Shown: positions 42,230 to 55,392 of the stretch, one piece after another
Numbering within the stretch: the first letter of the stretch is position 1
Layout of the letters: every line of letters starts with the position of its first letter
DNA from: an uncultured Acetobacteraceae bacterium
GTDB taxonomy: Bacteria; Acidobacteriota; Terriglobia; Terriglobales; Acidobacteriaceae
Assembly (NCBI GenBank): GCA_964658265.1
Contig: CAZZYN010000006.1
Span: forward strand, 13,790-77,789
Direction: 5' to 3'
DNA: 64,000 bases
The notes under the pieces: model-generated
Seen by the model: the letters and a program-made list of their open reading frames with translations, nothing else
Databases searched by the model: none
Told to the model about the DNA's origin: nothing
Translations under genes and position numbers: made by a program

Positions 42230-43438
42230 TCAGGCAGAGTTCCGGCGGAGCTGGGCGTGCTGGTGCCGGTAGGGCAGAAAGATGCTCATGCAGGTACCGC
42301 GTCTTGGTCCGGATACGGAACTGCGGACGCAGAAATCGCCGCCCTGGCGCTTCACGATGTCCTTCGAGATCCAAAGTCCGAGGCCGGTGCCAGTCTTTTC
42401 CTTGGTGGTGACGAAGGCCTCGAAGACTTTCGTCAGCATGGTCTTTGGAATACCGGATCCGGTGTCGGCCACAGTAACGCGAATGCCTTCCTGGCTGGTT
42501 CGCCAGTTACGCGCGGGCTTGACGGCAATCCAGAGCTTTGCCGGCGATTCCATGGCATCGAGAGCATTGCCGACGAGGTTTACAAAGACCTGGCGCAGCT
42601 CGCCGCTGAAAGCTACCAGTGGTTGCGTGCCTGGATGGTAGCGTCGTTCCACCTGCACCTGCTCGCAGCGGATACGGCCAGCGAAGAGTGCCAAAACGCC
42701 GTCGAGGACCTCGGACATCTGGAGTGCGGAAGGTTCTGCCTGTGGGCGGCAGAAACGAAGCGTCTGCGTGGCGATAGTGCTCACGCGTGCAAGCTCCTGC
42801 TCAGCCAGGACGCCATAGCGGCGGACGTCCTCAAGGCTCTCGGCCTGATTGACCAGGAAGAGCAGGTTGATGACGCTCTCGAGTGGATTGTTCAGCTCGT
42901 GAGCGATGGATGCTGAAAGCCGGCCCATGGAAACCAGGCTTTCAACCTGCATCAGGGTTTGCTCAGCCTGCCGCCTGCGCGTAATGTCATGCGCCACAAT
43001 GACGATGCAGTGCGGTGTCTGATCGTTCGCGCAAAGGACAGTAACTGTCTCTGCAGCCCAGGCATCCCCGCCATCTCTCCGCTGATATCTTGTCTCTACG
43101 TGAAATGTACCTGCTGTTCCGTCGATCAGGTGCTGCAGGTGCTGCTGCCGTTGCGAGCGGCTTTCCGGGTGCACCAGCTCATCTATCGCTTCGGCAAGCA
43201 ACTCCGCAGCTTCGCAGCCAAGGAGCGCGGCGTAGGCATTGTTTACATGGTAGACGGCGCCTGTCTTGTCGACCAGGGCAAAGCCGGCTGAAGCACTTTT
43301 GAAGAAACGCATCAGCTCCTGTTCTGTTTCCGCCAACAGCCGGTCCGCACTGCCCGTCTCTGCCCGGCCAGGAGTTTCAGCCATGCAAAGAACGTATCGA
43401 ACGTCGCCATTGTCCGAAGGCAATGGCGTATGGGTCAT
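42230..43438 (-). CDS. PAS-domain sensor histidine kinase
   Basis: PAS region (FALVDKTGAVYHVNNAY...), H-box SIAHELNNPL, and N/G boxes (VNLVGNALDA, DTGSGI, GTGLGLWISKDIV). The alternative start is MAETPG at 43384. Confidence 0.85.
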   Translation of the reverse strand: MTHTPLPSDNGDVRYVLCMAETPGRAETGSADRLLAETEQELMRFFKSASAGFALVDKTGAVYHVNNAYAALLGCEAAELLAEAIDELVHPESRSQRQQHLQHLIDGTAGTFHVETRYQRRDGGDAWAAETVTVLCANDQTPHCIVIVAHDITRRRQAEQTLMQVESLVSMGRLSASIAHELNNPLESVINLLFLVNQAESLEDVRRYGVLAEQELARVSTIATQTLRFCRPQAEPSALQMSEVLDGVLALFAGRIRCEQVQVERRYHPGTQPLVAFSGELRQVFVNLVGNALDAMESPAKLWIAVKPARNWRTSQEGIRVTVADTGSGIPKTMLTKVFEAFVTTKEKTGTGLGLWISKDIVKRQGGDFCVRSSVSGPRRGTCMSIFLPYRHQHAQLRRNSA

Positions 43439-43994
43439 AGCGACGGATGCAGTCGAACCTGAAGCGACCAGGCGCGCGTAGGCCTGGTTGGCAGCGACTA
43501 CTGTGCCTCATCCGCAAGGTAGACTGCGGCGGCCTGGGGCAGAGCGGAGAGCAATGCGCGAAAGCCTGGTAATTCCAATTCGCTGCCGGGCATCTTCTCT
43601 TACCAATCCTGGGTTGAAGTCTGGCCGATCGTACTAGAGCCCTAGCAGAATGGATTGCTTCGACGGACAATAGGTTGTTCTGTCGATAACACCAAAAATC
43701 AACGTAGGAATTACCCTTTTCCGTGGCAACCAAAGAGCCTTTCATTCCTAGCCTCTTTGGGTCATTGGCAGCAGCTTGATCTGTATCTATAACGGTCACA
43801 TATCCCAGGTTTTTACCAGGTTGATGTAGAAGCGCAGGCTTTGTCCGGCAAGCCAGGACCCGGCTGGCAGCGGGCCTGCTGTGAAGCGCTGTGAACCTGG
43901 GGACTACGGGCTCTTCATGATGCCGGAGATATCCGGGTTCTGTCAGGCAAAGTTCCCTTCGGACGAACCCGGCTCGGCCCTGCTCTTCAGTCAT
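43377..43994 (-). CDS. Doubtful ORF in an AT-richer stretch (205 aa)
   Basis: This is the only ORF of 60 aa or more across 43439-43986. Its ATG overlaps the upstream stop in ATGACTGA, the same junction as hisD/hisC. However, it is rich in rare AGG/AGA/CTA/ATA codons and its C-terminal half is Arg/Cys-rich like a non-coding frame. Confidence 0.25.
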   Translation of the reverse strand: MTEEQGRAGFVRRELCLTEPGYLRHHEEPVVPRFTALHSRPAASRVLACRTKPALLHQPGKNLGYVTVIDTDQAAANDPKRLGMKGSLVATEKGNSYVDFWCYRQNNLLSVEAIHSARALVRSARLQPRIGKRRCPAANWNYQAFAHCSPLCPRPPQSTLRMRHSSRCQPGLRAPGRFRFDCIRRYDPYAIAFGQWRRSIRSLHG

Positions 43995-44517
43995 CCAGAC
44001 CGGAGACCGGGGCCACTTTTTTGAAGCCATAGCGTTCCGCCAGTTCCCACGGCCCTCCCAGGTATCGCCACAGCAGCAGGCCGGTGGCTGTGAGCGGGAA
44101 GGGAGCAAAATTTTCGCCCAGGTGCCGATGCAGTTCTTTCGATGCCGCCGGCTCCACCTTGTTCTGGATGACGATATGCGGGGCATACCGCTGGCGGTCC
44201 TGGCTGGTAAGGTCGTCGGCGAAGGCGGCAGCCAGTCTTGCATGCAGAGCCAGCAGCTCGGGCGAACGCAAAACGTAGGCCACGCCTTTCCCAAGATGGC
44301 GCAGGCCGGTCACCTCCATGGCGAACTCGGCGCAGGAGTCGGCTGTTTCGCGCAGCTCTGCCTCAACTGCTCCTGACTTTTCCGCTGGAAGGGTGTGGAA
44401 GAGGGTGATGTGCGCCGGTATCCGATTGAGGTGCGGCGGAAAATGCGCCTTGCGCAGGGTATCCATCTGCAGCTGCTGCTCGGCGGCGATCTCGAGTGTC
44501 AATACGAATGAATTCAC
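43987..44517 (-). CDS. 2H phosphoesterase superfamily protein (2'-5' RNA ligase/ThpR-like)
   Basis: Two H-x-T/V-x motifs (AHITLFHTL and PHIVIQNK), separated as in 2H-family proteins, and about 176 aa in length. Confidence 0.7.
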   Translation of the reverse strand: MNSFVLTLEIAAEQQLQMDTLRKAHFPPHLNRIPAHITLFHTLPAEKSGAVEAELRETADSCAEFAMEVTGLRHLGKGVAYVLRSPELLALHARLAAAFADDLTSQDRQRYAPHIVIQNKVEPAASKELHRHLGENFAPFPLTATGLLLWRYLGGPWELAERYGFKKVAPVSGLDD

Positions 44518-49488: not shown

Positions 49489-51786
49489 TTACGGGAGCAG
49501 CCCGAAGACCGCTACTCCATTTGGTGTGCCGACATAGACGTTGCCATTTGCCACGACCGGCGTCAGGAACTTGTTACCCAGGCCAAAGCTGCTGCTGCCG
49601 CCGCCCGGCAGAGGCTGGTTGGTGTTGTAAAGCTCGTCCGCCAAGTTGTTAGCGTCGTAGGCATGCAGCACAGCAGGCGCGCCCGGACCGCTTTCGAGGG
49701 CCCAGACGATACCGCCAGTCGTGCCGTTTGCAGACACTGTCGGGGTCGCGCCCGGATACTGGAAGGTGACAGCGGAACGACTGGACGGTGTGGCTGCCAA
49801 GCGCGCCTGGCTGATCGGGAATGCCTTCAATACATCGCCCTGGCCGCCGTAGTAGACGGTGTTGTTGAAGTAGGCGGGGCTTGACCATGCGCCATTGACC
49901 AGCGCACCCGGAATCTCCTGGTAGAGGTTGCTGTTGTCCTGGGTCGCTGCGTTGAACCGCCCCAGTTTGTCGCGGTCACCGACATAGATGTTCATATCTT
50001 TGCCGGCGCCGACCAGCAGGTGCCGCGTCGTGCCGCTGGCGTCCACCATGTCCGGCAGCAGCATCACACCGCCGGAGCCCAGGTCTGCATCCGCAGCCGA
50101 CTCGCTGACCGTGTTGTAGGGCTCAAAGAAGTCAGTGACGGCAAGCGTACTGGTCGTGCCGAGCTTCACGATGGCATTGCCGTAGTCGCCGTCGGAGGGG
50201 AAGCCGGCTGCATTGATGGTGTCCTGGAACGATCCATTCGCGTCCAGGAAGTACAGATTATTCGAGCTATCCGCGGCCAGGCCGTTGCCGGACATCCAGA
50301 TCGAGCCTTCGCTGCCGTTCGGCGTGAGATTCAGGACCTGGGTCTGCTTTAACGTGGCTTCGCTGAAGCCCATCACCCAGCCGGTGTACGGGCGAATGTC
50401 GCAGTGCGAGGTCCAGGCGGTGTAGATGGTGCCATTCACCAGCGTGAGTGCAGCGCGCTCAGCATATTGCGCAGGATCAAAGATCACCATCCCGCCGCTG
50501 CTGTTGTCGCCGGTACCAGGATACGTTGCGGTGATCTCGGTTGGACTTCCAGCCTGCTCGGCGCCAGTTGCCAGGTCGAGCGCATGCAGCCGCTGATGAT
50601 AATGGTTGGCCGCGTCCAGACTCATGCTTACAGCGAAGATCGTCCCGTTCGGACCAGCCTTGCGGTCAATTACCGGCGTGGAGGTGATGCCGACTTCCGG
50701 TGTGATCTGACCGCAGCCATTCTTGGCCGTTGTCTCGTTCAGTCCCAGCAGCGATGTCATCCAGACCTGCGCGCCGGTCGCCGTATTGAAGGCATAGAGG
50801 CTGCCATGTTCGGAAGCGACATAAACCAGGTTGGCAATCGTTCCGCCGCCGACCGGCACCTGGGCCGCGAAGAGGGGGGCCGCGTCTACCTTGCCATCTG
50901 CTGCATAGAAGCCTACTTTGCCGAAAGTGGCGGCGGTGACCTTCGCGGGCGTCAGAATCGACTCCTGCGCGTTCAGGCCATCGCGTGCATTGTCATAGTG
51001 ATAGGTCACGACGTCGGCGACCGCAGCAGCCTGGATATTCAACGTGACCGACGCGCTGCCGGTAAGTGCGGGTGTCGCGCCGGCATCGGCTGCATTGATG
51101 CTGACAGCAGAAGAGCCGGCCGCTGCGCTGTAGCCCGCAGCAAAAGTGATGTTCTGCGGCACGCCAGGCGCCAGCTTGAGGGATGCCGGGCTAGCAGTGA
51201 CGCCGGCAGGCAAAGGTCCGAGAGTGACGGTTACAGGATCGGTAAACCCGTTGAGGGCATTCTCGGTGATCGCGACTTGCGCGCCGGCTGGATTGCCAAT
51301 CGTCAGCGTCTGCGCTGCCGGGGCTGCCGAGATGGTAAAGCCCGGAGCGGCCTTCACTGCCACCGCGAAGGTCGCCGTATGCGTGAGCGATCCGGCGGCG
51401 CCGGTTGCCGTGATAGTTGCATTCGCGGCGGCAGCACTGGCAGCGGCGCCGAGTGTAACGCTCTGGCTACTGCCGGGCGCCACGCTGAAGCTGGCGGGAG
51501 TTGCGGTCACCCCGGCCGGAAGTCCTGTGAGGCTTACGGCGACAGCTGTTGTGAAGTTTCCGACGGCCGTAGCCGCGACCGACACGGTCTGCGTGGCGGC
51601 GCCCGCCGTCAGGCTGGCCGTTGCCGGCGAGACAGCCAGGGAAAAGTCAGCCGTTGCTGCAGGTGTGGTGGTGGTCTTGGGAGCAGTCGTCGAGCTACTG
51701 CTGCAGCCCTGCAACAGGCAGATCAGCATGGCAGACACAGGCAGTATCGGATTCAGGAAAGATTTCAAAGTGGCCCCCCGCCGCAC
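49489..51786 (-). CDS. Lipoprotein with two tandem Ig-like modules and a PQQ-like (BamB-like) beta-propeller
   Basis: Lipobox LLQGC. The repeated module signature is LPAGVTA(T/S)PAS..(V/L)APG...Q..T. The C-terminal region has repeated ...LYA(F/L)(N/D)..TG...W blades. Confidence 0.75.
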   Translation of the reverse strand: MRRGATLKSFLNPILPVSAMLICLLQGCSSSSTTAPKTTTTPAATADFSLAVSPATASLTAGAATQTVSVAATAVGNFTTAVAVSLTGLPAGVTATPASFSVAPGSSQSVTLGAAASAAAANATITATGAAGSLTHTATFAVAVKAAPGFTISAAPAAQTLTIGNPAGAQVAITENALNGFTDPVTVTLGPLPAGVTASPASLKLAPGVPQNITFAAGYSAAAGSSAVSINAADAGATPALTGSASVTLNIQAAAVADVVTYHYDNARDGLNAQESILTPAKVTAATFGKVGFYAADGKVDAAPLFAAQVPVGGGTIANLVYVASEHGSLYAFNTATGAQVWMTSLLGLNETTAKNGCGQITPEVGITSTPVIDRKAGPNGTIFAVSMSLDAANHYHQRLHALDLATGAEQAGSPTEITATYPGTGDNSSGGMVIFDPAQYAERAALTLVNGTIYTAWTSHCDIRPYTGWVMGFSEATLKQTQVLNLTPNGSEGSIWMSGNGLAADSSNNLYFLDANGSFQDTINAAGFPSDGDYGNAIVKLGTTSTLAVTDFFEPYNTVSESAADADLGSGGVMLLPDMVDASGTTRHLLVGAGKDMNIYVGDRDKLGRFNAATQDNSNLYQEIPGALVNGAWSSPAYFNNTVYYGGQGDVLKAFPISQARLAATPSSRSAVTFQYPGATPTVSANGTTGGIVWALESGPGAPAVLHAYDANNLADELYNTNQPLPGGGSSSFGLGNKFLTPVVANGNVYVGTPNGVAVFGLLP
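51031..51648 (-). repeat. Two tandem ~100-aa Ig-like coding repeats inside the propeller lipoprotein
   Basis: Residues ~47-144 and ~148-252 share GLPAGVTATPASFSVAPGSSQSVTL versus PLPAGVTASPASLKLAPGVPQNITF and a similar Ala/Thr-rich beta pattern. Confidence 0.6.
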
Positions 51787-51959: not shown

Positions 51960-52913
51960 TTACTGTGCAGCCGGCAGCAGGGCATCCGCAATTGCCTGCG
52001 AGTTGATGGCCACCCCCGCGGTGCTGAGGTGCTGCGCATCAACAAAGGCAGAGTCATCCAGCAGCAACGGGGCAGGCAGGCCTAGGAATGCTGTGCCGAC
52101 CTTGTAATCGTTCAGATGTTCGTCACAGTGACGGACCGGAGACGGCCATATCAGCACCCTGGTCCCATGCCGTGCGTAGGCCTGGTAGCTGGCAACGTAA
52201 CTGCGGCTGAAGGTGACGTCGTGGAACTGGTAGAAGCAATCGGTATTGCCGCCGGGATGCTGGCTTGCGTAGAAGCCGTTCGTCGCCTGCAGGGCTGCCG
52301 TATCCCGCTTGAACGTACCCTCCGATAGGTCCGGACTGGTGCTGGGTGTAAAGCCGATGAGCTGCCGCCAGAGCTGCGCTGCGAAGTAGAAGCTGTCTTT
52401 CGGGTGTCTCAGGAAAAGGCGTACGGCCTGGAGTGGCGGCAGTTTGCGGTCTGCGATCAGGAAGCCGTCGATGATGCCCGCATCGTCGTCGATTGCCGGG
52501 GGCCGCAGATGCGCTGCCAGCAGCTCGATGACGATGAAGCGAGGCGGCCTGTGCGTGGCCAGGTAATGATCCAGTGCCAGGTTGCCGGTAGTTGCCAGGC
52601 CCAGGTAGGTGAGTCCGAAGTTGCAGGTTTTCAGGCCGGTGCGTGCTTCGATCAAGCGCGGATCAGCACCCAGCAGGGCAGTCGAATCGCCAAAAATGAC
52701 GATGTCGCACTGCTCGGGACGATCGGCAAACTGGTATTCCATGGCGTGCCAGAAATCGCGTTTGGAAGTGCGGATGAACCAGTCCGTACGCGCCAGCGGG
52801 AAGACTGCCAGGAAGGCCAAGAGCGGCACCAGCACAAGCAGCAGCAGGTAGACGGACGGCCTTCCCGCCGGACGGCCGACGACAGCCGAGCGCTGTTCCG
52901 GACCAGGGTTCAT
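51960..52913 (-). CDS. Membrane-anchored GDS-motif protein, SGNH/DltD-like (putative acyl-transfer partner)
   Basis: Single N-terminal helix (VYLLLLVLVPLLAFLAVF), then CDIVIFGDSTALLG, which is SGNH block I-like. The start at ATG 52913 lies 4 nt after the carrier-protein stop. Confidence 0.5.
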   Translation of the reverse strand: MNPGPEQRSAVVGRPAGRPSVYLLLLVLVPLLAFLAVFPLARTDWFIRTSKRDFWHAMEYQFADRPEQCDIVIFGDSTALLGADPRLIEARTGLKTCNFGLTYLGLATTGNLALDHYLATHRPPRFIVIELLAAHLRPPAIDDDAGIIDGFLIADRKLPPLQAVRLFLRHPKDSFYFAAQLWRQLIGFTPSTSPDLSEGTFKRDTAALQATNGFYASQHPGGNTDCFYQFHDVTFSRSYVASYQAYARHGTRVLIWPSPVRHCDEHLNDYKVGTAFLGLPAPLLLDDSAFVDAQHLSTAGVAINSQAIADALLPAAQ

Positions 52914-52917
52914 GCGG

Positions 52918-53172
52918 CTAGGCGCCGCGAGCCGCGAGCTTCTTCTCAATAATGTCGACGAAGTGGCCGACGTTCTTCATGGACTCGATCTCGGCGGTCT
53001 GGAATTTGATTTTGAACTTCGCCTCTGTCGCCACGATGAGATTGATGTGATTAAAGGAATCCCACTCGTCGATATCAGCGGCTGTTGTCTCTGGCTTCAG
53101 GACGATGGCCTCATCATCAAAGATGTCGCGAAAGATGTCGGTCAGACGGCTATAAATCTCGGCTTGCTGCAT
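52918..53172 (-). CDS. Acyl/peptidyl carrier protein
   Basis: 84 aa four-helix pattern with the phosphopantetheine site DEWDSFNHINLI. Confidence 0.8.
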   Translation of the reverse strand: MQQAEIYSRLTDIFRDIFDDEAIVLKPETTAADIDEWDSFNHINLIVATEAKFKIKFQTAEIESMKNVGHFVDIIEKKLAARGA

Positions 53173-53244
53173 GGTTCCCTTCGTCTACTTGTTTACGGGC
53201 TGGTTCGCTTAAAAACCGGCCGCATCCTGCTTTGGCGTCCGCTC

Positions 53245-55392
53245 TTAAACCGCCTGGACTGCCGCTGGTTCCTGGACAGTGACCTTCATGATGACGGGCT
53301 TTTTTTCATAGCCGGCTAGTTTCAGTGTCCACTCTATGGTCTCTGCGTCGCCCACTTCAACTCCGGATGGCCTCGATGACGTGCCCAGTGTAAAGCCAAG
53401 CCGCTCATAGAGGGTGCGGACCATCTCGTTCTTCGCGGTCGGACGGTACAGCCCGATGATCCGCATAGCGCCTAGCCGGCGAGCAGCGTCGATCATGATG
53501 TTCAGGCAGGCCTCTTCCACCTGGCGGCCGAGCACGCGGCAACTCATCAGCCACGTGTCCATGACCAGTGCATGGTCAGCCTCCACCCGTCCGATCAGGA
53601 TTGCGATGATGCCGTTATCGCCGAAACGGTCCGTCAGCCGAAACTGGTAAGCAGCCACGCCGGGATCGCTCATCATGGCGCGCACATCGGCCTCGGTGTA
53701 GCGGCGTGTCGTCAGGTTGAACTGGTTGGTTTTGTTGATCAGCTGCACGATTCTGGCCAGTCCGACTGCGTCGAAAGGGCGGACGATCAATTCCATATCC
53801 AGGCCACGCAGGTAGCCGTCGAGATCGGTGGCGGAGGTCTTCAACTGTTCACGTTCGATATTGGCGCGATATTGACCAGCGCGCTCACGATCCTCTTCGG
53901 TGACCGCCAGCGATTCGAAGTAGCCCGCGGCCGCAATGGTCGCAGCGTAGAACGAGGGGTCCTCGGGAAGTTCCGGGACCTGCACTTCCGGCAGCTCCTG
54001 CCGGACCAGGTTGCGCTCGAAGGGATTGTCGTCGGCGAAGACCAGCGAATCGAGACCGATGTTCAGTGTCTTCGCGATATGCCGCAGGTTCCCGGCCTTG
54101 TCCTGCCAGTTGGCGACGAAGCAGGCAATATCCTTCCGCTTCAACACCATGTCGGGATGCTGTTCAAAGGGCGAAAGCGCATTTGCCTCGTCGTTTTTCG
54201 AGCAGACCGCCAGGATGACGCCGCGTCGCGAAAGCTGCTGCGCATATGTTTGGAAGTCAACGAATGCTTCGCCCATTGCAGAGCCCTGGCCCAGCTGAAT
54301 ACCTTCCAGGCCATCGTCTCCGATGACTCCACCCCACAGGGTGTTATCGAGGTCGAGCACCAGGCACTTCGAGGACCGGCCACGGATGGCTGCCAGCAGC
54401 CGGCCGGCCAGGTCGCCGTACAGATGCGAGACGCGCGGATGGACTTCCTGCTTGGAACGGTGCCACAGGACCGGATCGAACCAGTGTGCCATCCCCGCCT
54501 CAGCCGCATAGCTGTCCACTGCAAGCAGGTGGGCGCCGTGCTTGTCCGCGAGCGACCGCAGGCGGCCATTGATTGTTTCCACAATCGCTGCGGGCGACTC
54601 TGGATCACGCTGCTCATTGTTGCCGAGCAGGCGCGGAAACACCGGCAGCACTGCCTGGTGAAGGACTGTCGCGTTGAAGTTGTCGCGGGCCGCATACCAG
54701 CACGTCGTGATGTTTTCGAGTGCAGCTTCCGGATTGCCTCGCGCGGACGCAGCCACATGGTGCGCGTCGAGCGCCAGCAGTACTACCTGCGGCTTGAAGG
54801 CCTTCAGGGCCTGTCCGGGCTCCAGCAGCTCCTGGCGATACTGCCCGTATTCTCCTTCGAAGACTTCAATCCACATTCCGCGCCGTAGTCCTGCGACGCG
54901 GATTGCCGGGGCCAGGTGGTGCAGCGTGGAAGAGCCCAGCAATGCCAGCCGGATAGGTGCGCCGGCTGCTGAGGGTGCCGTGGGAAAAAGCTTGCGGGTG
55001 GTTCGATCCAGTTTGCCCGTCTCGAGGAAGTCGATGCGGAAGTTCGCTGCTGCTACCAGGTGGCGCCAGCGGGAGAGTTCATCCGGCTGTTCTGTCGCTG
55101 CACGCAGATGGCTGCCCCAGTCCGCAATGGCTGGCAGCCAGGTAAATTCAGTCAAAACATCTCTCCAGAATCGGGGGTTTTCCTGCCAGCCCAATTGTAT
55201 GCACAGGAGCGCCAGGGTGGAATTCAGCTGCGGGTGGAAGAATGCGGGCGTGACTCCAAGCCTTCGAAGCTGGCAGGGATGCAGGCGGAACTTCTGCTGC
55301 CACCACGGAAAAGGGCCTCCCGGATACGGGACGCCCTCTTCATTCCTAATTTGCGCCGGCCGTTGCCGGTCACTTCCAGGAGAACCGTTCAC
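53245..55392 (-). CDS. FkbH-like HAD-superfamily (subfamily IIIC) phosphatase/acyl-loading enzyme with C-terminal GNAT-like domain
   Basis: HAD motif I LVLDLDNTLWGGVIGDDG, motif II CSKN, and motif III/IV KAGNL...FADDNP. The C-terminus has DRFGDNGIIAIL...WLMSCRVLGRQVE, typical of FkbH-family proteins. The N-terminal ~330 aa is SGNH-like (LALLGSST). The true start is uncertain. Confidence 0.85.
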   Translation of the reverse strand: MNGSPGSDRQRPAQIRNEEGVPYPGGPFPWWQQKFRLHPCQLRRLGVTPAFFHPQLNSTLALLCIQLGWQENPRFWRDVLTEFTWLPAIADWGSHLRAATEQPDELSRWRHLVAAANFRIDFLETGKLDRTTRKLFPTAPSAAGAPIRLALLGSSTLHHLAPAIRVAGLRRGMWIEVFEGEYGQYRQELLEPGQALKAFKPQVVLLALDAHHVAASARGNPEAALENITTCWYAARDNFNATVLHQAVLPVFPRLLGNNEQRDPESPAAIVETINGRLRSLADKHGAHLLAVDSYAAEAGMAHWFDPVLWHRSKQEVHPRVSHLYGDLAGRLLAAIRGRSSKCLVLDLDNTLWGGVIGDDGLEGIQLGQGSAMGEAFVDFQTYAQQLSRRGVILAVCSKNDEANALSPFEQHPDMVLKRKDIACFVANWQDKAGNLRHIAKTLNIGLDSLVFADDNPFERNLVRQELPEVQVPELPEDPSFYAATIAAAGYFESLAVTEEDRERAGQYRANIEREQLKTSATDLDGYLRGLDMELIVRPFDAVGLARIVQLINKTNQFNLTTRRYTEADVRAMMSDPGVAAYQFRLTDRFGDNGIIAILIGRVEADHALVMDTWLMSCRVLGRQVEEACLNIMIDAARRLGAMRIIGLYRPTAKNEMVRTLYERLGFTLGTSSRPSGVEVGDAETIEWTLKLAGYEKKPVIMKVTVQEPAAVQAV

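Follow-up and report, generated by a model that had tools for sequence, protein, structure and literature searches.

Three co-directional, closely spaced genes lie on the minus strand at positions 51960-55392 of the 64,000-nt stretch of acidobacterial DNA analysed here (the window; all coordinates are those of the window, except where a contig or locus is prefixed). They encode a putative FkbH-family loader, a discrete acyl carrier protein (ACP) and a predicted membrane-anchored SGNH/DltD-like protein (Table 1), and were recovered as open reading frames (ORFs) in the arrangement that an earlier note, made from the letters alone, had given for them. That note had proposed a carrier-dependent system decorating an envelope polymer or lipid, and had remarked that no gene for a membrane-bound O-acyltransferase (MBOAT) lay nearby. 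The comparisons reported here point to a pathway split over two loci, in which the trio would act with an MBOAT encoded on another contig of the same genome. Relatives used in all comparative genomics were mostly metagenome-assembled genomes (MAGs). They comprised a sample of 151 genomes from the window's own family and 52 related loci drawn from species-representative genomes; the latter were nearly all from Acidobacteriaceae, with a few from Steroidobacteraceae and one from a Verrucomicrobiae MAG.

Table 1. Positions of the trio and of the empty syntenic site (aa, amino acids; AF2, AlphaFold2)
Feature	Position	Strand	Basis or remark
Putative FkbH-family loader	53245..55155	(-)	TIGR01686, PDB 3slr match, invariant motifs, start-site analysis, AF2 model
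FkbH-like maximal ORF	53245-55392	(-)	GTG 55392 start, 715 aa
Discrete acyl carrier protein, 84 aa	52918-53172	(-)	Below-cut-off NCBIfam ACP matches, invariant WDSF Ser
Predicted membrane-anchored SGNH/DltD-like protein, 317 aa	51960..52913	(-)	ATG 52913; motifs, AF2 model, Foldseek
Empty syntenic site	43439..44495	.	~1 kb, family-less 305-aa ORF, no MBOAT

Products of the three genes

Profile searches placed the first product in the FkbH family (TIGR01686, E 7.6e-99, 330.9 bits, cut-off 146.65), as the earlier note had read it, with an N-terminal FkbH_N domain (PF21211, 1.1e-7) followed by a HAD-IIIC phosphatase domain (TIGR01681, 8.7e-16) and a GNAT-like C-terminal domain. Residues 146-499 resemble Bacteroides fragilis BF1531, an uncharacterised protein of known structure (PDB 3slr, E 1.1e-70). 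The HAD-IIIC motifs were confirmed: LDLDNT, CSKN, K353 and DDN showed no variation in 14 sequences, and the C-domain motifs NKTNQFNLTT, GDNG, WLMSCRVL and KNxMV were unchanged across 14 relatives, the invariant cysteine of the GNAT-like domain sitting in WLMSCRVL. This cysteine is said to have a role in loading, on the strength of work on OzmB. In Foldseek comparisons of the AF2 model (predicted local distance difference test score, pLDDT, 82.9), the N-terminal and HAD domains matched 3slr with a target-normalised template modelling (TM) score of 0.79, and the last ~170 residues matched many GNAT acetyltransferases (E ~5e-6, target-normalised TM 0.6-0.69), so that the GNAT-like C-terminus also holds by fold. 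The length of 715 aa originally given for this protein did not survive the start-site analysis against orthologues. Because conservation among orthologues begins only at ...WLP, leaving the first 79 codons of the maximal ORF unconserved in any of them, and because TTG 55155 is preceded by GGAGAG and yields a product of orthologue length, the loader is probably 636 aa long. The later start also leaves a longer intergenic region toward the his (histidine biosynthesis) leader.

The carrier protein gene lies 72 nt downstream of the FkbH-like gene, and ACP-FkbH adjacency was seen in 14 distinct loci. Its product gave no Pfam match in the profile search, and its matches to NCBIfam ACP models all fell below the cut-offs, the best at 1.5e-7. 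The serine of the WDSF site and its flanking residues are invariant in 17 relatives, all of which adjoin an FkbH-type gene, an SGNH-like gene or an MBOAT, and the original description of an 84-aa carrier with this site is thereby borne out. The WDSF serine is the presumed phosphopantetheine site; the genome encodes two phosphopantetheinyl transferases.

The ATG of the third gene follows the ACP stop by 4 nt, as had been described together with the 317-aa length and the single N-terminal helix, all of which were confirmed. An alternative start at TTG 52949 gives 329 aa, and residue numbers below follow this longer ORF, not the 317-aa form. In the model of the protein (sequence IVIFGDSTALLG), a single long helix at the N-terminus (residues 31-53) precedes an alpha/beta domain. 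The profile search assigned it to no Pfam or NCBIfam family. In 30 aligned members the GDS motif (Ser89) and residues D304 and H307 of a DxxH block are invariant, as are four cysteines (C81, C109, C238 and C275); Ser89, Asp304 and His307 are the presumed catalytic residues. With the AF2 model (pLDDT 90.6) as query, the top Foldseek matches in the PDB were all SGNH hydrolases, namely a carbohydrate acetylesterase, platelet-activating factor (PAF) acetylhydrolase and DltD (6o93 and 7dxm). Pfam searches with the members returned faint DUF1574 matches in 4 of 30 and faint Lipase_GDSL matches, with no SGNH sequence model above noise, and a sequence-profile search of the family against the PDB found nothing. 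Relatives numbered 33 in a word-based search, none of them with a protein name; in the full profile search, 241 representative clusters passed E <= 1e-30 and 2,158 passed E <= 1e-3, and the clusters sampled were all annotated as 'hypothetical protein'. From the motifs and the model we read the third protein as a divergent SGNH/DltD-like family for which no Pfam or NCBIfam model exists. The four invariant cysteines, together with the logic of MBOAT systems, suggest that its SGNH-like domain is extracytoplasmic.

Linkage to MBOAT genes and the split arrangement

No MBOAT and no ketosynthase was found on the window's contig. A search of the rest of the genome located an MBOAT on contig C12 (C12:4834-6372), convergent with the genome's only paralogue of the third gene; the FkbH and ACP genes of the trio have no second copy in the genome. 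The C12 MBOAT matches PF03062 (1.8e-19), contains WHGAG and ends in FLYFQF, a terminus that follows the final membrane helix in 16/16 aligned members of its lineage. FXYXXF is an acyl-shuttle motif whose tyrosine is acylated in DltX and, as found by experiment, in PatA (PMC12148441). When ORFs were searched for F[ILVM]Y[FA][QN]F at the stop, only two MBOAT ORFs genome-wide ended in a hexapeptide of this type, and no ORF of the window ends in FxYxxF, that is, no DltX-like microprotein was found there. The C12 protein matches the DltB structures 6bug (E 3.7e-27) and 8jem (E ~4e-27), and both MBOATs of the genome score 151-161 bits (160.9 for that on C12) against a DltB equivalog cut-off of 375. 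The second of them (contig C33:11718-14089 of the window's genome, G000; L007:6719-9089) is a 479-aa protein ending in FIYFQF. The next gene encodes a membrane-anchored protein of 334 aa that has LLLGSSH and HDSNH motifs; the two form a pair of MBOAT and DltD-like protein of another lineage, without a carrier.

Among the 52 related loci, an MBOAT of the C12 lineage directly adjoins the SGNH-like gene in 47, and the complete MBOAT genes score ~500-760 bits against the C12 MBOAT compared with ~140 bits against the other MBOAT of the genome. Eight of these loci have FkbH and ACP directly upstream and two more have ACP alone. In the 151-genome sample, FkbH orthologues (>750 bits, 55-71% identity) were present in 8 genomes, and as the third gene lies within ~2 kb of the orthologue in 8/8, the linkage between the two is beyond chance; an intact adjacent MBOAT was present in 6 of the 8 and a partial one in 1. 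Counted by distinct loci, carrier protein and loader accompany the SGNH gene here and in 13 others. A second FkbH subtype, ~40% identical, is likewise linked to ACP, SGNH and MBOAT genes (L069, from a genome of the window's own genus, and L080). The conservation of gene neighbourhood that the earlier note had set as a check is thus observed directly, and its proposal of carrier-dependent envelope decoration gains from a family that stands nearly always beside an FXYXXF MBOAT and is joined in many loci by FkbH and ACP.

The absence of an MBOAT from the vicinity of the trio holds for the whole contig, but it reflects a lineage-specific loss or split and is not a property of the system. The window and its two closest relatives share the order hisG, then FkbH-ACP-SGNH-propeller-MBL-GH28, then FTHFS-DUF3455 (MBL, metallo-beta-lactamase-fold protein; FTHFS, formate-tetrahydrofolate ligase). 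Those two relatives carry, 8 kb downstream of the trio, an MBOAT of the C12 lineage (~523-528 aa), with the DUF3455 gene on one side and a histidine kinase gene on the other. The corresponding site of the window, compared in L009, L063 and L065, is empty (Table 1), and the stretch 43377-44495 looks like the scar of a deletion or replacement. An MBOAT pseudogene in the window was considered and rejected, as the best tblastn match of the relatives' MBOATs to the window had E = 1.2.

The SGNH-like proteins and the MBOATs gave concordant maximum-likelihood trees, in which a large clade of MBOAT-SGNH pairs without FkbH (Granulicella, Bryocella; the pair-only clade) stands apart. With starred support, both SGNH genes (that of the window and its paralogue on C12) and the MBOAT of C12 fall among FkbH-linked members; the lineage of the MBOAT encoded in trans is thus observed directly. 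A candidate for the partner MBOAT that the earlier note had suggested seeking elsewhere is accordingly present, in the right lineage and beside a paralogue of the third gene. In the four other lineages of the FkbH-linked clade that carry only the pair at one site (G002, G158, G155 with the 40% subtype, and the L003/L040 genome), FkbH and ACP occur elsewhere in the same genome. The simplest history suggested by these relationships is an ancestral cluster of FkbH-ACP-SGNH convergent with MBOAT, as kept in L003 and L012, followed by duplication of the SGNH gene and a split.

Several loci depart from the common layout. A variant cassette in L080 (L080:3673-9534) has genes for a ketoreductase, a MaoC dehydratase, an ACP and an FkbH-like protein divergent from the SGNH-like gene and MBOAT, a layout which suggests that in some lineages a carrier-bound C3 unit is dehydrated and reduced before export. 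In L078 (L078:3450-11463, genome G158) the FkbH orthologue and ACP are followed by a gene for an 864-aa protein without a Pfam match and preceded by genes for a hexapeptide acyltransferase, a GT2 glycosyltransferase and a PAF acetylhydrolase-like hydrolase; the MBOAT-SGNH pair of this genome lies ~50 kb from its FkbH-ACP. In L072 (L072:3287-9053, genome G077) the SGNH-like ORF stands in tandem with a truncated second one, and the MBOAT is matched only in part; this cassette may be a degraded copy or an assembly problem, the genome being 68% complete. The cultured type strain Bryocella elongata DSM 22489 (L079, L034) carries a pair-only MBOAT-SGNH locus and, at a separate site, an FkbH orthologue that stands alone, with genes for a glyoxalase and a GHMP kinase after it; the same two genes flank the complete cassette in L005, and the solitary gene may be what is left of a partly deleted cassette. 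In a sample of the phylum, the matches listed include at least 3 further adjacent pairs of FkbH-domain and MBOAT genes (G121, G321, G271); among the same matches, most FkbH-domain genes are not in such pairs, and some form part of multi-domain ORFs of 900-2,500 aa. The pair-only clade has as conserved neighbours an IclR regulator, glucose-6-phosphate isomerase, a mannose-6-phosphate isomerase-like gene and a desaturase; these were considered as pointers to an acceptor and set aside, since they look like vertical synteny within Granulicella-like genomes; the FkbH-linked loci share no further conserved neighbour that could serve as such a pointer.

Proposed pathway and competing explanations

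We read the trio, with a probability of about 0.6, as the donor and acceptor-side half of a four-component, carrier-fed MBOAT-SGNH O-acylation pathway of the PatAB type, in which an FkbH-like enzyme stands in for the DltA ligase, glyceryl is the probable cargo and the genes are split over two loci, with FkbH, ACP and one SGNH copy by the his operon and the SGNH paralogue and MBOAT on C12. Gene content, linkage, motifs and folds are direct observations, and from them we infer the cargo, the topology, the partnership in trans and the acceptor in this pathway. By analogy with characterised enzymes, the FkbH-like protein would take a phosphorylated glycolytic acyl donor, by homology 1,3-bisphosphoglycerate; the donor would be dephosphorylated at the HAD site and the glyceryl unit loaded, by way of the cysteine of the GNAT domain, onto the phosphopantetheine arm of the ACP. 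Like DltC on DltB, the acyl-ACP would then dock on the MBOAT from the cytoplasmic side, and the MBOAT would pass the acyl group through the membrane to the tyrosine of its own C-terminal FLYFQF, a step proposed because of the mechanism of PatA and of DltB/DltX. A periplasm-facing SGNH-like protein would take the acyl group on Ser89, with Asp304 and His307, and esterify an envelope polymer or lipid. One MBOAT may here serve two SGNH transferases, and the two paralogues may correspond to two acceptors or two positions. The fully specified form of the pathway, with D-glycerate as the ester group on an envelope polymer or lipid, delivered through FkbH-ACP, a PatA-like MBOAT and the SGNH-like family and with a single MBOAT for two transferases in this genome, would apply to Acidobacteriaceae and some other Gram-negative bacteria and is offered more tentatively, at slightly worse than even odds.

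Several observations weigh against the four-component pathway. The earlier prediction of an SGNH protein is favoured by the GDS and DxxH motifs and by top fold matches that are exclusively SGNH, but the assignment consists of two short motifs and weak fold matches (E 2e-3 to 1e-2, TM 0.3-0.49, query-normalised TM ~0.3). Basic residues flank the membrane helix on both sides, and the periplasmic topology is a matter of interpretation. The trio has no adjacent MBOAT, the syntenic one having been lost, and it is phylogeny that ties it to the MBOAT on C12. Most MBOAT-SGNH pairs of the family occur without FkbH or ACP and are presumably fed by acyl-CoA, and the Bryocella FkbH orthologue of L079 has no ACP, SGNH or MBOAT gene next to it. 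No conserved polysaccharide genes were found beside the FkbH-linked cassettes, and the neighbourhoods gave no pointer to an acceptor.

The same machinery could carry another cargo, the FkbH-like enzyme loading a different small acyl phosphate or a group derived from acyl-CoA that enters by way of the GNAT-like domain, in which case the ester would be of an acid other than glycerate. The literature found holds no characterised FkbH member from an MBOAT context, the C-terminal domain has the fold of a GNAT, and the dehydratase and short-chain reductase added in the L080 cassette indicate that the tethered unit can be remodelled; yet the invariant HAD motifs and SCRV cysteine fit a two-step phosphatase and acyl-transfer chemistry (PMC7489565) and no tailoring genes flank the trio here, and we consider a different cargo unlikely. 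It is less likely again that the trio is an orphaned remnant, idle or decaying since the loss of the syntenic MBOAT and delivering nothing to the envelope. None of the three reading frames is broken, their catalytic motifs are invariant, C12 keeps an MBOAT of the same FkbH-linked clade, and G158 likewise keeps FkbH and ACP apart from its MBOAT-SGNH pair. The dN/dS ratio is 0.08-0.18 for all three genes, with dS saturated, which indicates that the trio is under purifying selection. Against this must be set the relatives' MBOAT 8 kb downstream, absent here without a trace, and the position of this genome as the sole one of the 8 bearing FkbH that has no MBOAT near the trio.

A role in secondary metabolism, in which the first two genes would supply glyceryl-ACP to a polyketide synthase (PKS) or other small-molecule pathway and the 317-aa protein would be an unrelated esterase, is improbable, the least credible of the explanations considered. 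The observation that the window holds no PKS, dehydrogenase or O-methyltransferase stands for the contig and the scanned ORFs, but another contig does carry a hybrid of PKS and nonribosomal peptide synthetase (NRPS). This hybrid (C27:8083-27413; L082) has the domain order KS-AT-T-aminotransferase-C-A-T, then C-A-T-TE, and lies within a polysaccharide export and glycosyltransferase cluster, where one neighbouring gene encodes a Wza-like polysaccharide exporter and the other a GT4 glycosyltransferase; an Sfp-type transferase of its own is encoded close by. Of the 151 family genomes, ~17 encode a protein of ~2,700-2,840 aa that shares 45-63% identity with the first 1,200 residues of the hybrid, and orthologues were present in the five closest cassette-bearing genomes tested. 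In many genomes, however, the hybrid occurs without an FkbH orthologue (for example G065, G079, G138, G072, G044 and G118), it was not found in the cassette-bearing G009, G120, G077 and G151, and in the 151-genome sample FkbH and ACP are never beside it and always beside the SGNH-like gene. A link between the C27 PKS-NRPS and the trio was rejected, as the two do not co-vary. The scan of ten flanking ORFs (~42.2-49.5 kb and 56.3-60.2 kb) revealed no methoxymalonyl-type dehydrogenase or methyltransferase and no adjacent FabH-like gene.

Known systems and flanking genes

The host is a Gram-negative acidobacterium and is not known to have teichoic acids. Three steps are common to the pathway proposed above and the Dlt system (PMC12148441): charging of a small carrier by a loader in the cytoplasm, transfer of the acyl group by an MBOAT to the tyrosine of FXYXXF, and delivery by a membrane-anchored SGNH-like protein to an envelope polymer. 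The proposed pathway differs in its loader, which is an FkbH-type HAD/GNAT-like enzyme where Dlt has the adenylating ligase DltA (the search turned up no AMP-binding gene in the cassette or its scanned neighbours), and in its cargo, probably glyceryl instead of D-alanine. There is also no DltX microprotein here, the motif being fused to the C-terminus of an MBOAT that falls far below the DltB equivalog cut-off (160.9 bits against 375), and the genes lie at two loci.

With PatA/PatB, and also AlgI/AlgJ/AlgX and WssH/WssI, the system shares a Gram-negative host, an MBOAT of ~500 aa with a conserved histidine and a fused C-terminal FXYXXF, and a partner with one N-terminal helix and a predicted periplasmic SGNH-like domain. 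Those systems have no carrier and are fed by acyl-CoA, which is stated to be the rule for MBOAT-SGNH pathways other than Dlt (PMC12148441), whereas the present clade has linked FkbH and ACP genes; its SGNH-like partner also lacks a Pfam or NCBIfam model, with a faint likeness to DUF1574.

Enzymes of the FkbH, OzmB and Mad7/Mad14 type load a glyceryl unit onto an ACP in methoxymalonyl-ACP and tetronate pathways (PMC7489565). The loader here is like them in its above-cut-off FkbH domain, its adjacent discrete ACP and its intact HAD and C-domain motifs. It departs from them in carrying the additional N-terminal FkbH_N domain, as BF1531 (3slr) does, and in its surroundings: the oxidoreductases, O-methyltransferase or FabH-like enzyme and PKS that would mark membership of a methoxymalonyl-ACP or tetronate pathway are absent from the locus, and an MBOAT and an SGNH-like protein take their place as conserved partners.

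An FkbH-domain gene, cj1302, is also present in the flagellar glycosylation locus of Campylobacter jejuni (PMC7099621). The likeness is a lead only, in that an FkbH-domain gene stands in a glycan-modification and not a polyketide context. Decoration there presumably takes place in the cytoplasm at the level of nucleotide sugars, and we know of no MBOAT-SGNH export step in that system; cj1302 is, we assume, accompanied by ACP genes and concerned with decorating a sugar with a glyceric-acid-derived group.

Full-text literature searches found no paper pairing FkbH with an MBOAT or DltD in machinery of this kind, and searches on FkbH with polysaccharides and on gellan glyceryl transferase genes found nothing relevant. 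What appears to be new here is the split architecture, the fused FLYFQF motif and the SGNH-like family without a model. MBOAT-SGNH pairs are the general bacterial route for acylating polymers outside the cytoplasm, and an FkbH-ACP module acting on PatA-like MBOATs would break the rule given by the 2025 PatAB paper (PMC12148441), which confines the use of a carrier to Dlt. If the proposed pathway is correct, glycolysis would be linked directly to envelope decoration with a hydroxy-acid ester, and Dlt would be joined by a second carrier-fed MBOAT pathway, the first in a Gram-negative host. The trio, acting with the C12 MBOAT, is also a candidate route by which polysaccharides of bacteria could acquire glycerate esters; O-glyceryl groups are present in native gellan. 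Acidobacteria are abundant in soil and the chemistry of their envelopes is poorly known.

The trio is flanked by the his operon and by genes for a propeller lipoprotein, a metallo-beta-lactamase-fold protein, a GH28-like protein and formate-tetrahydrofolate ligase. A scan of the cassette for promoters and terminators gave nothing informative. The propeller lipoprotein (49489-51786), which had been thought a possible part of the system, is probably unrelated and was rejected as a component: among the relatives, its gene comes after the trio in the two closest syntenic ones alone, whereas in L003 and L012 the MBOAT takes that place, directly after the trio. Two of the loci compared, L009 (CAZZZL010000010.1) and L010 (CAZZXL010000103.1), show full synteny with the window and encode HisG proteins 88-90% identical to that of the window; both are labelled 'uncultured Acetobacteraceae', a label that is probably wrong, the other relatives of the window being Acidobacteriaceae.

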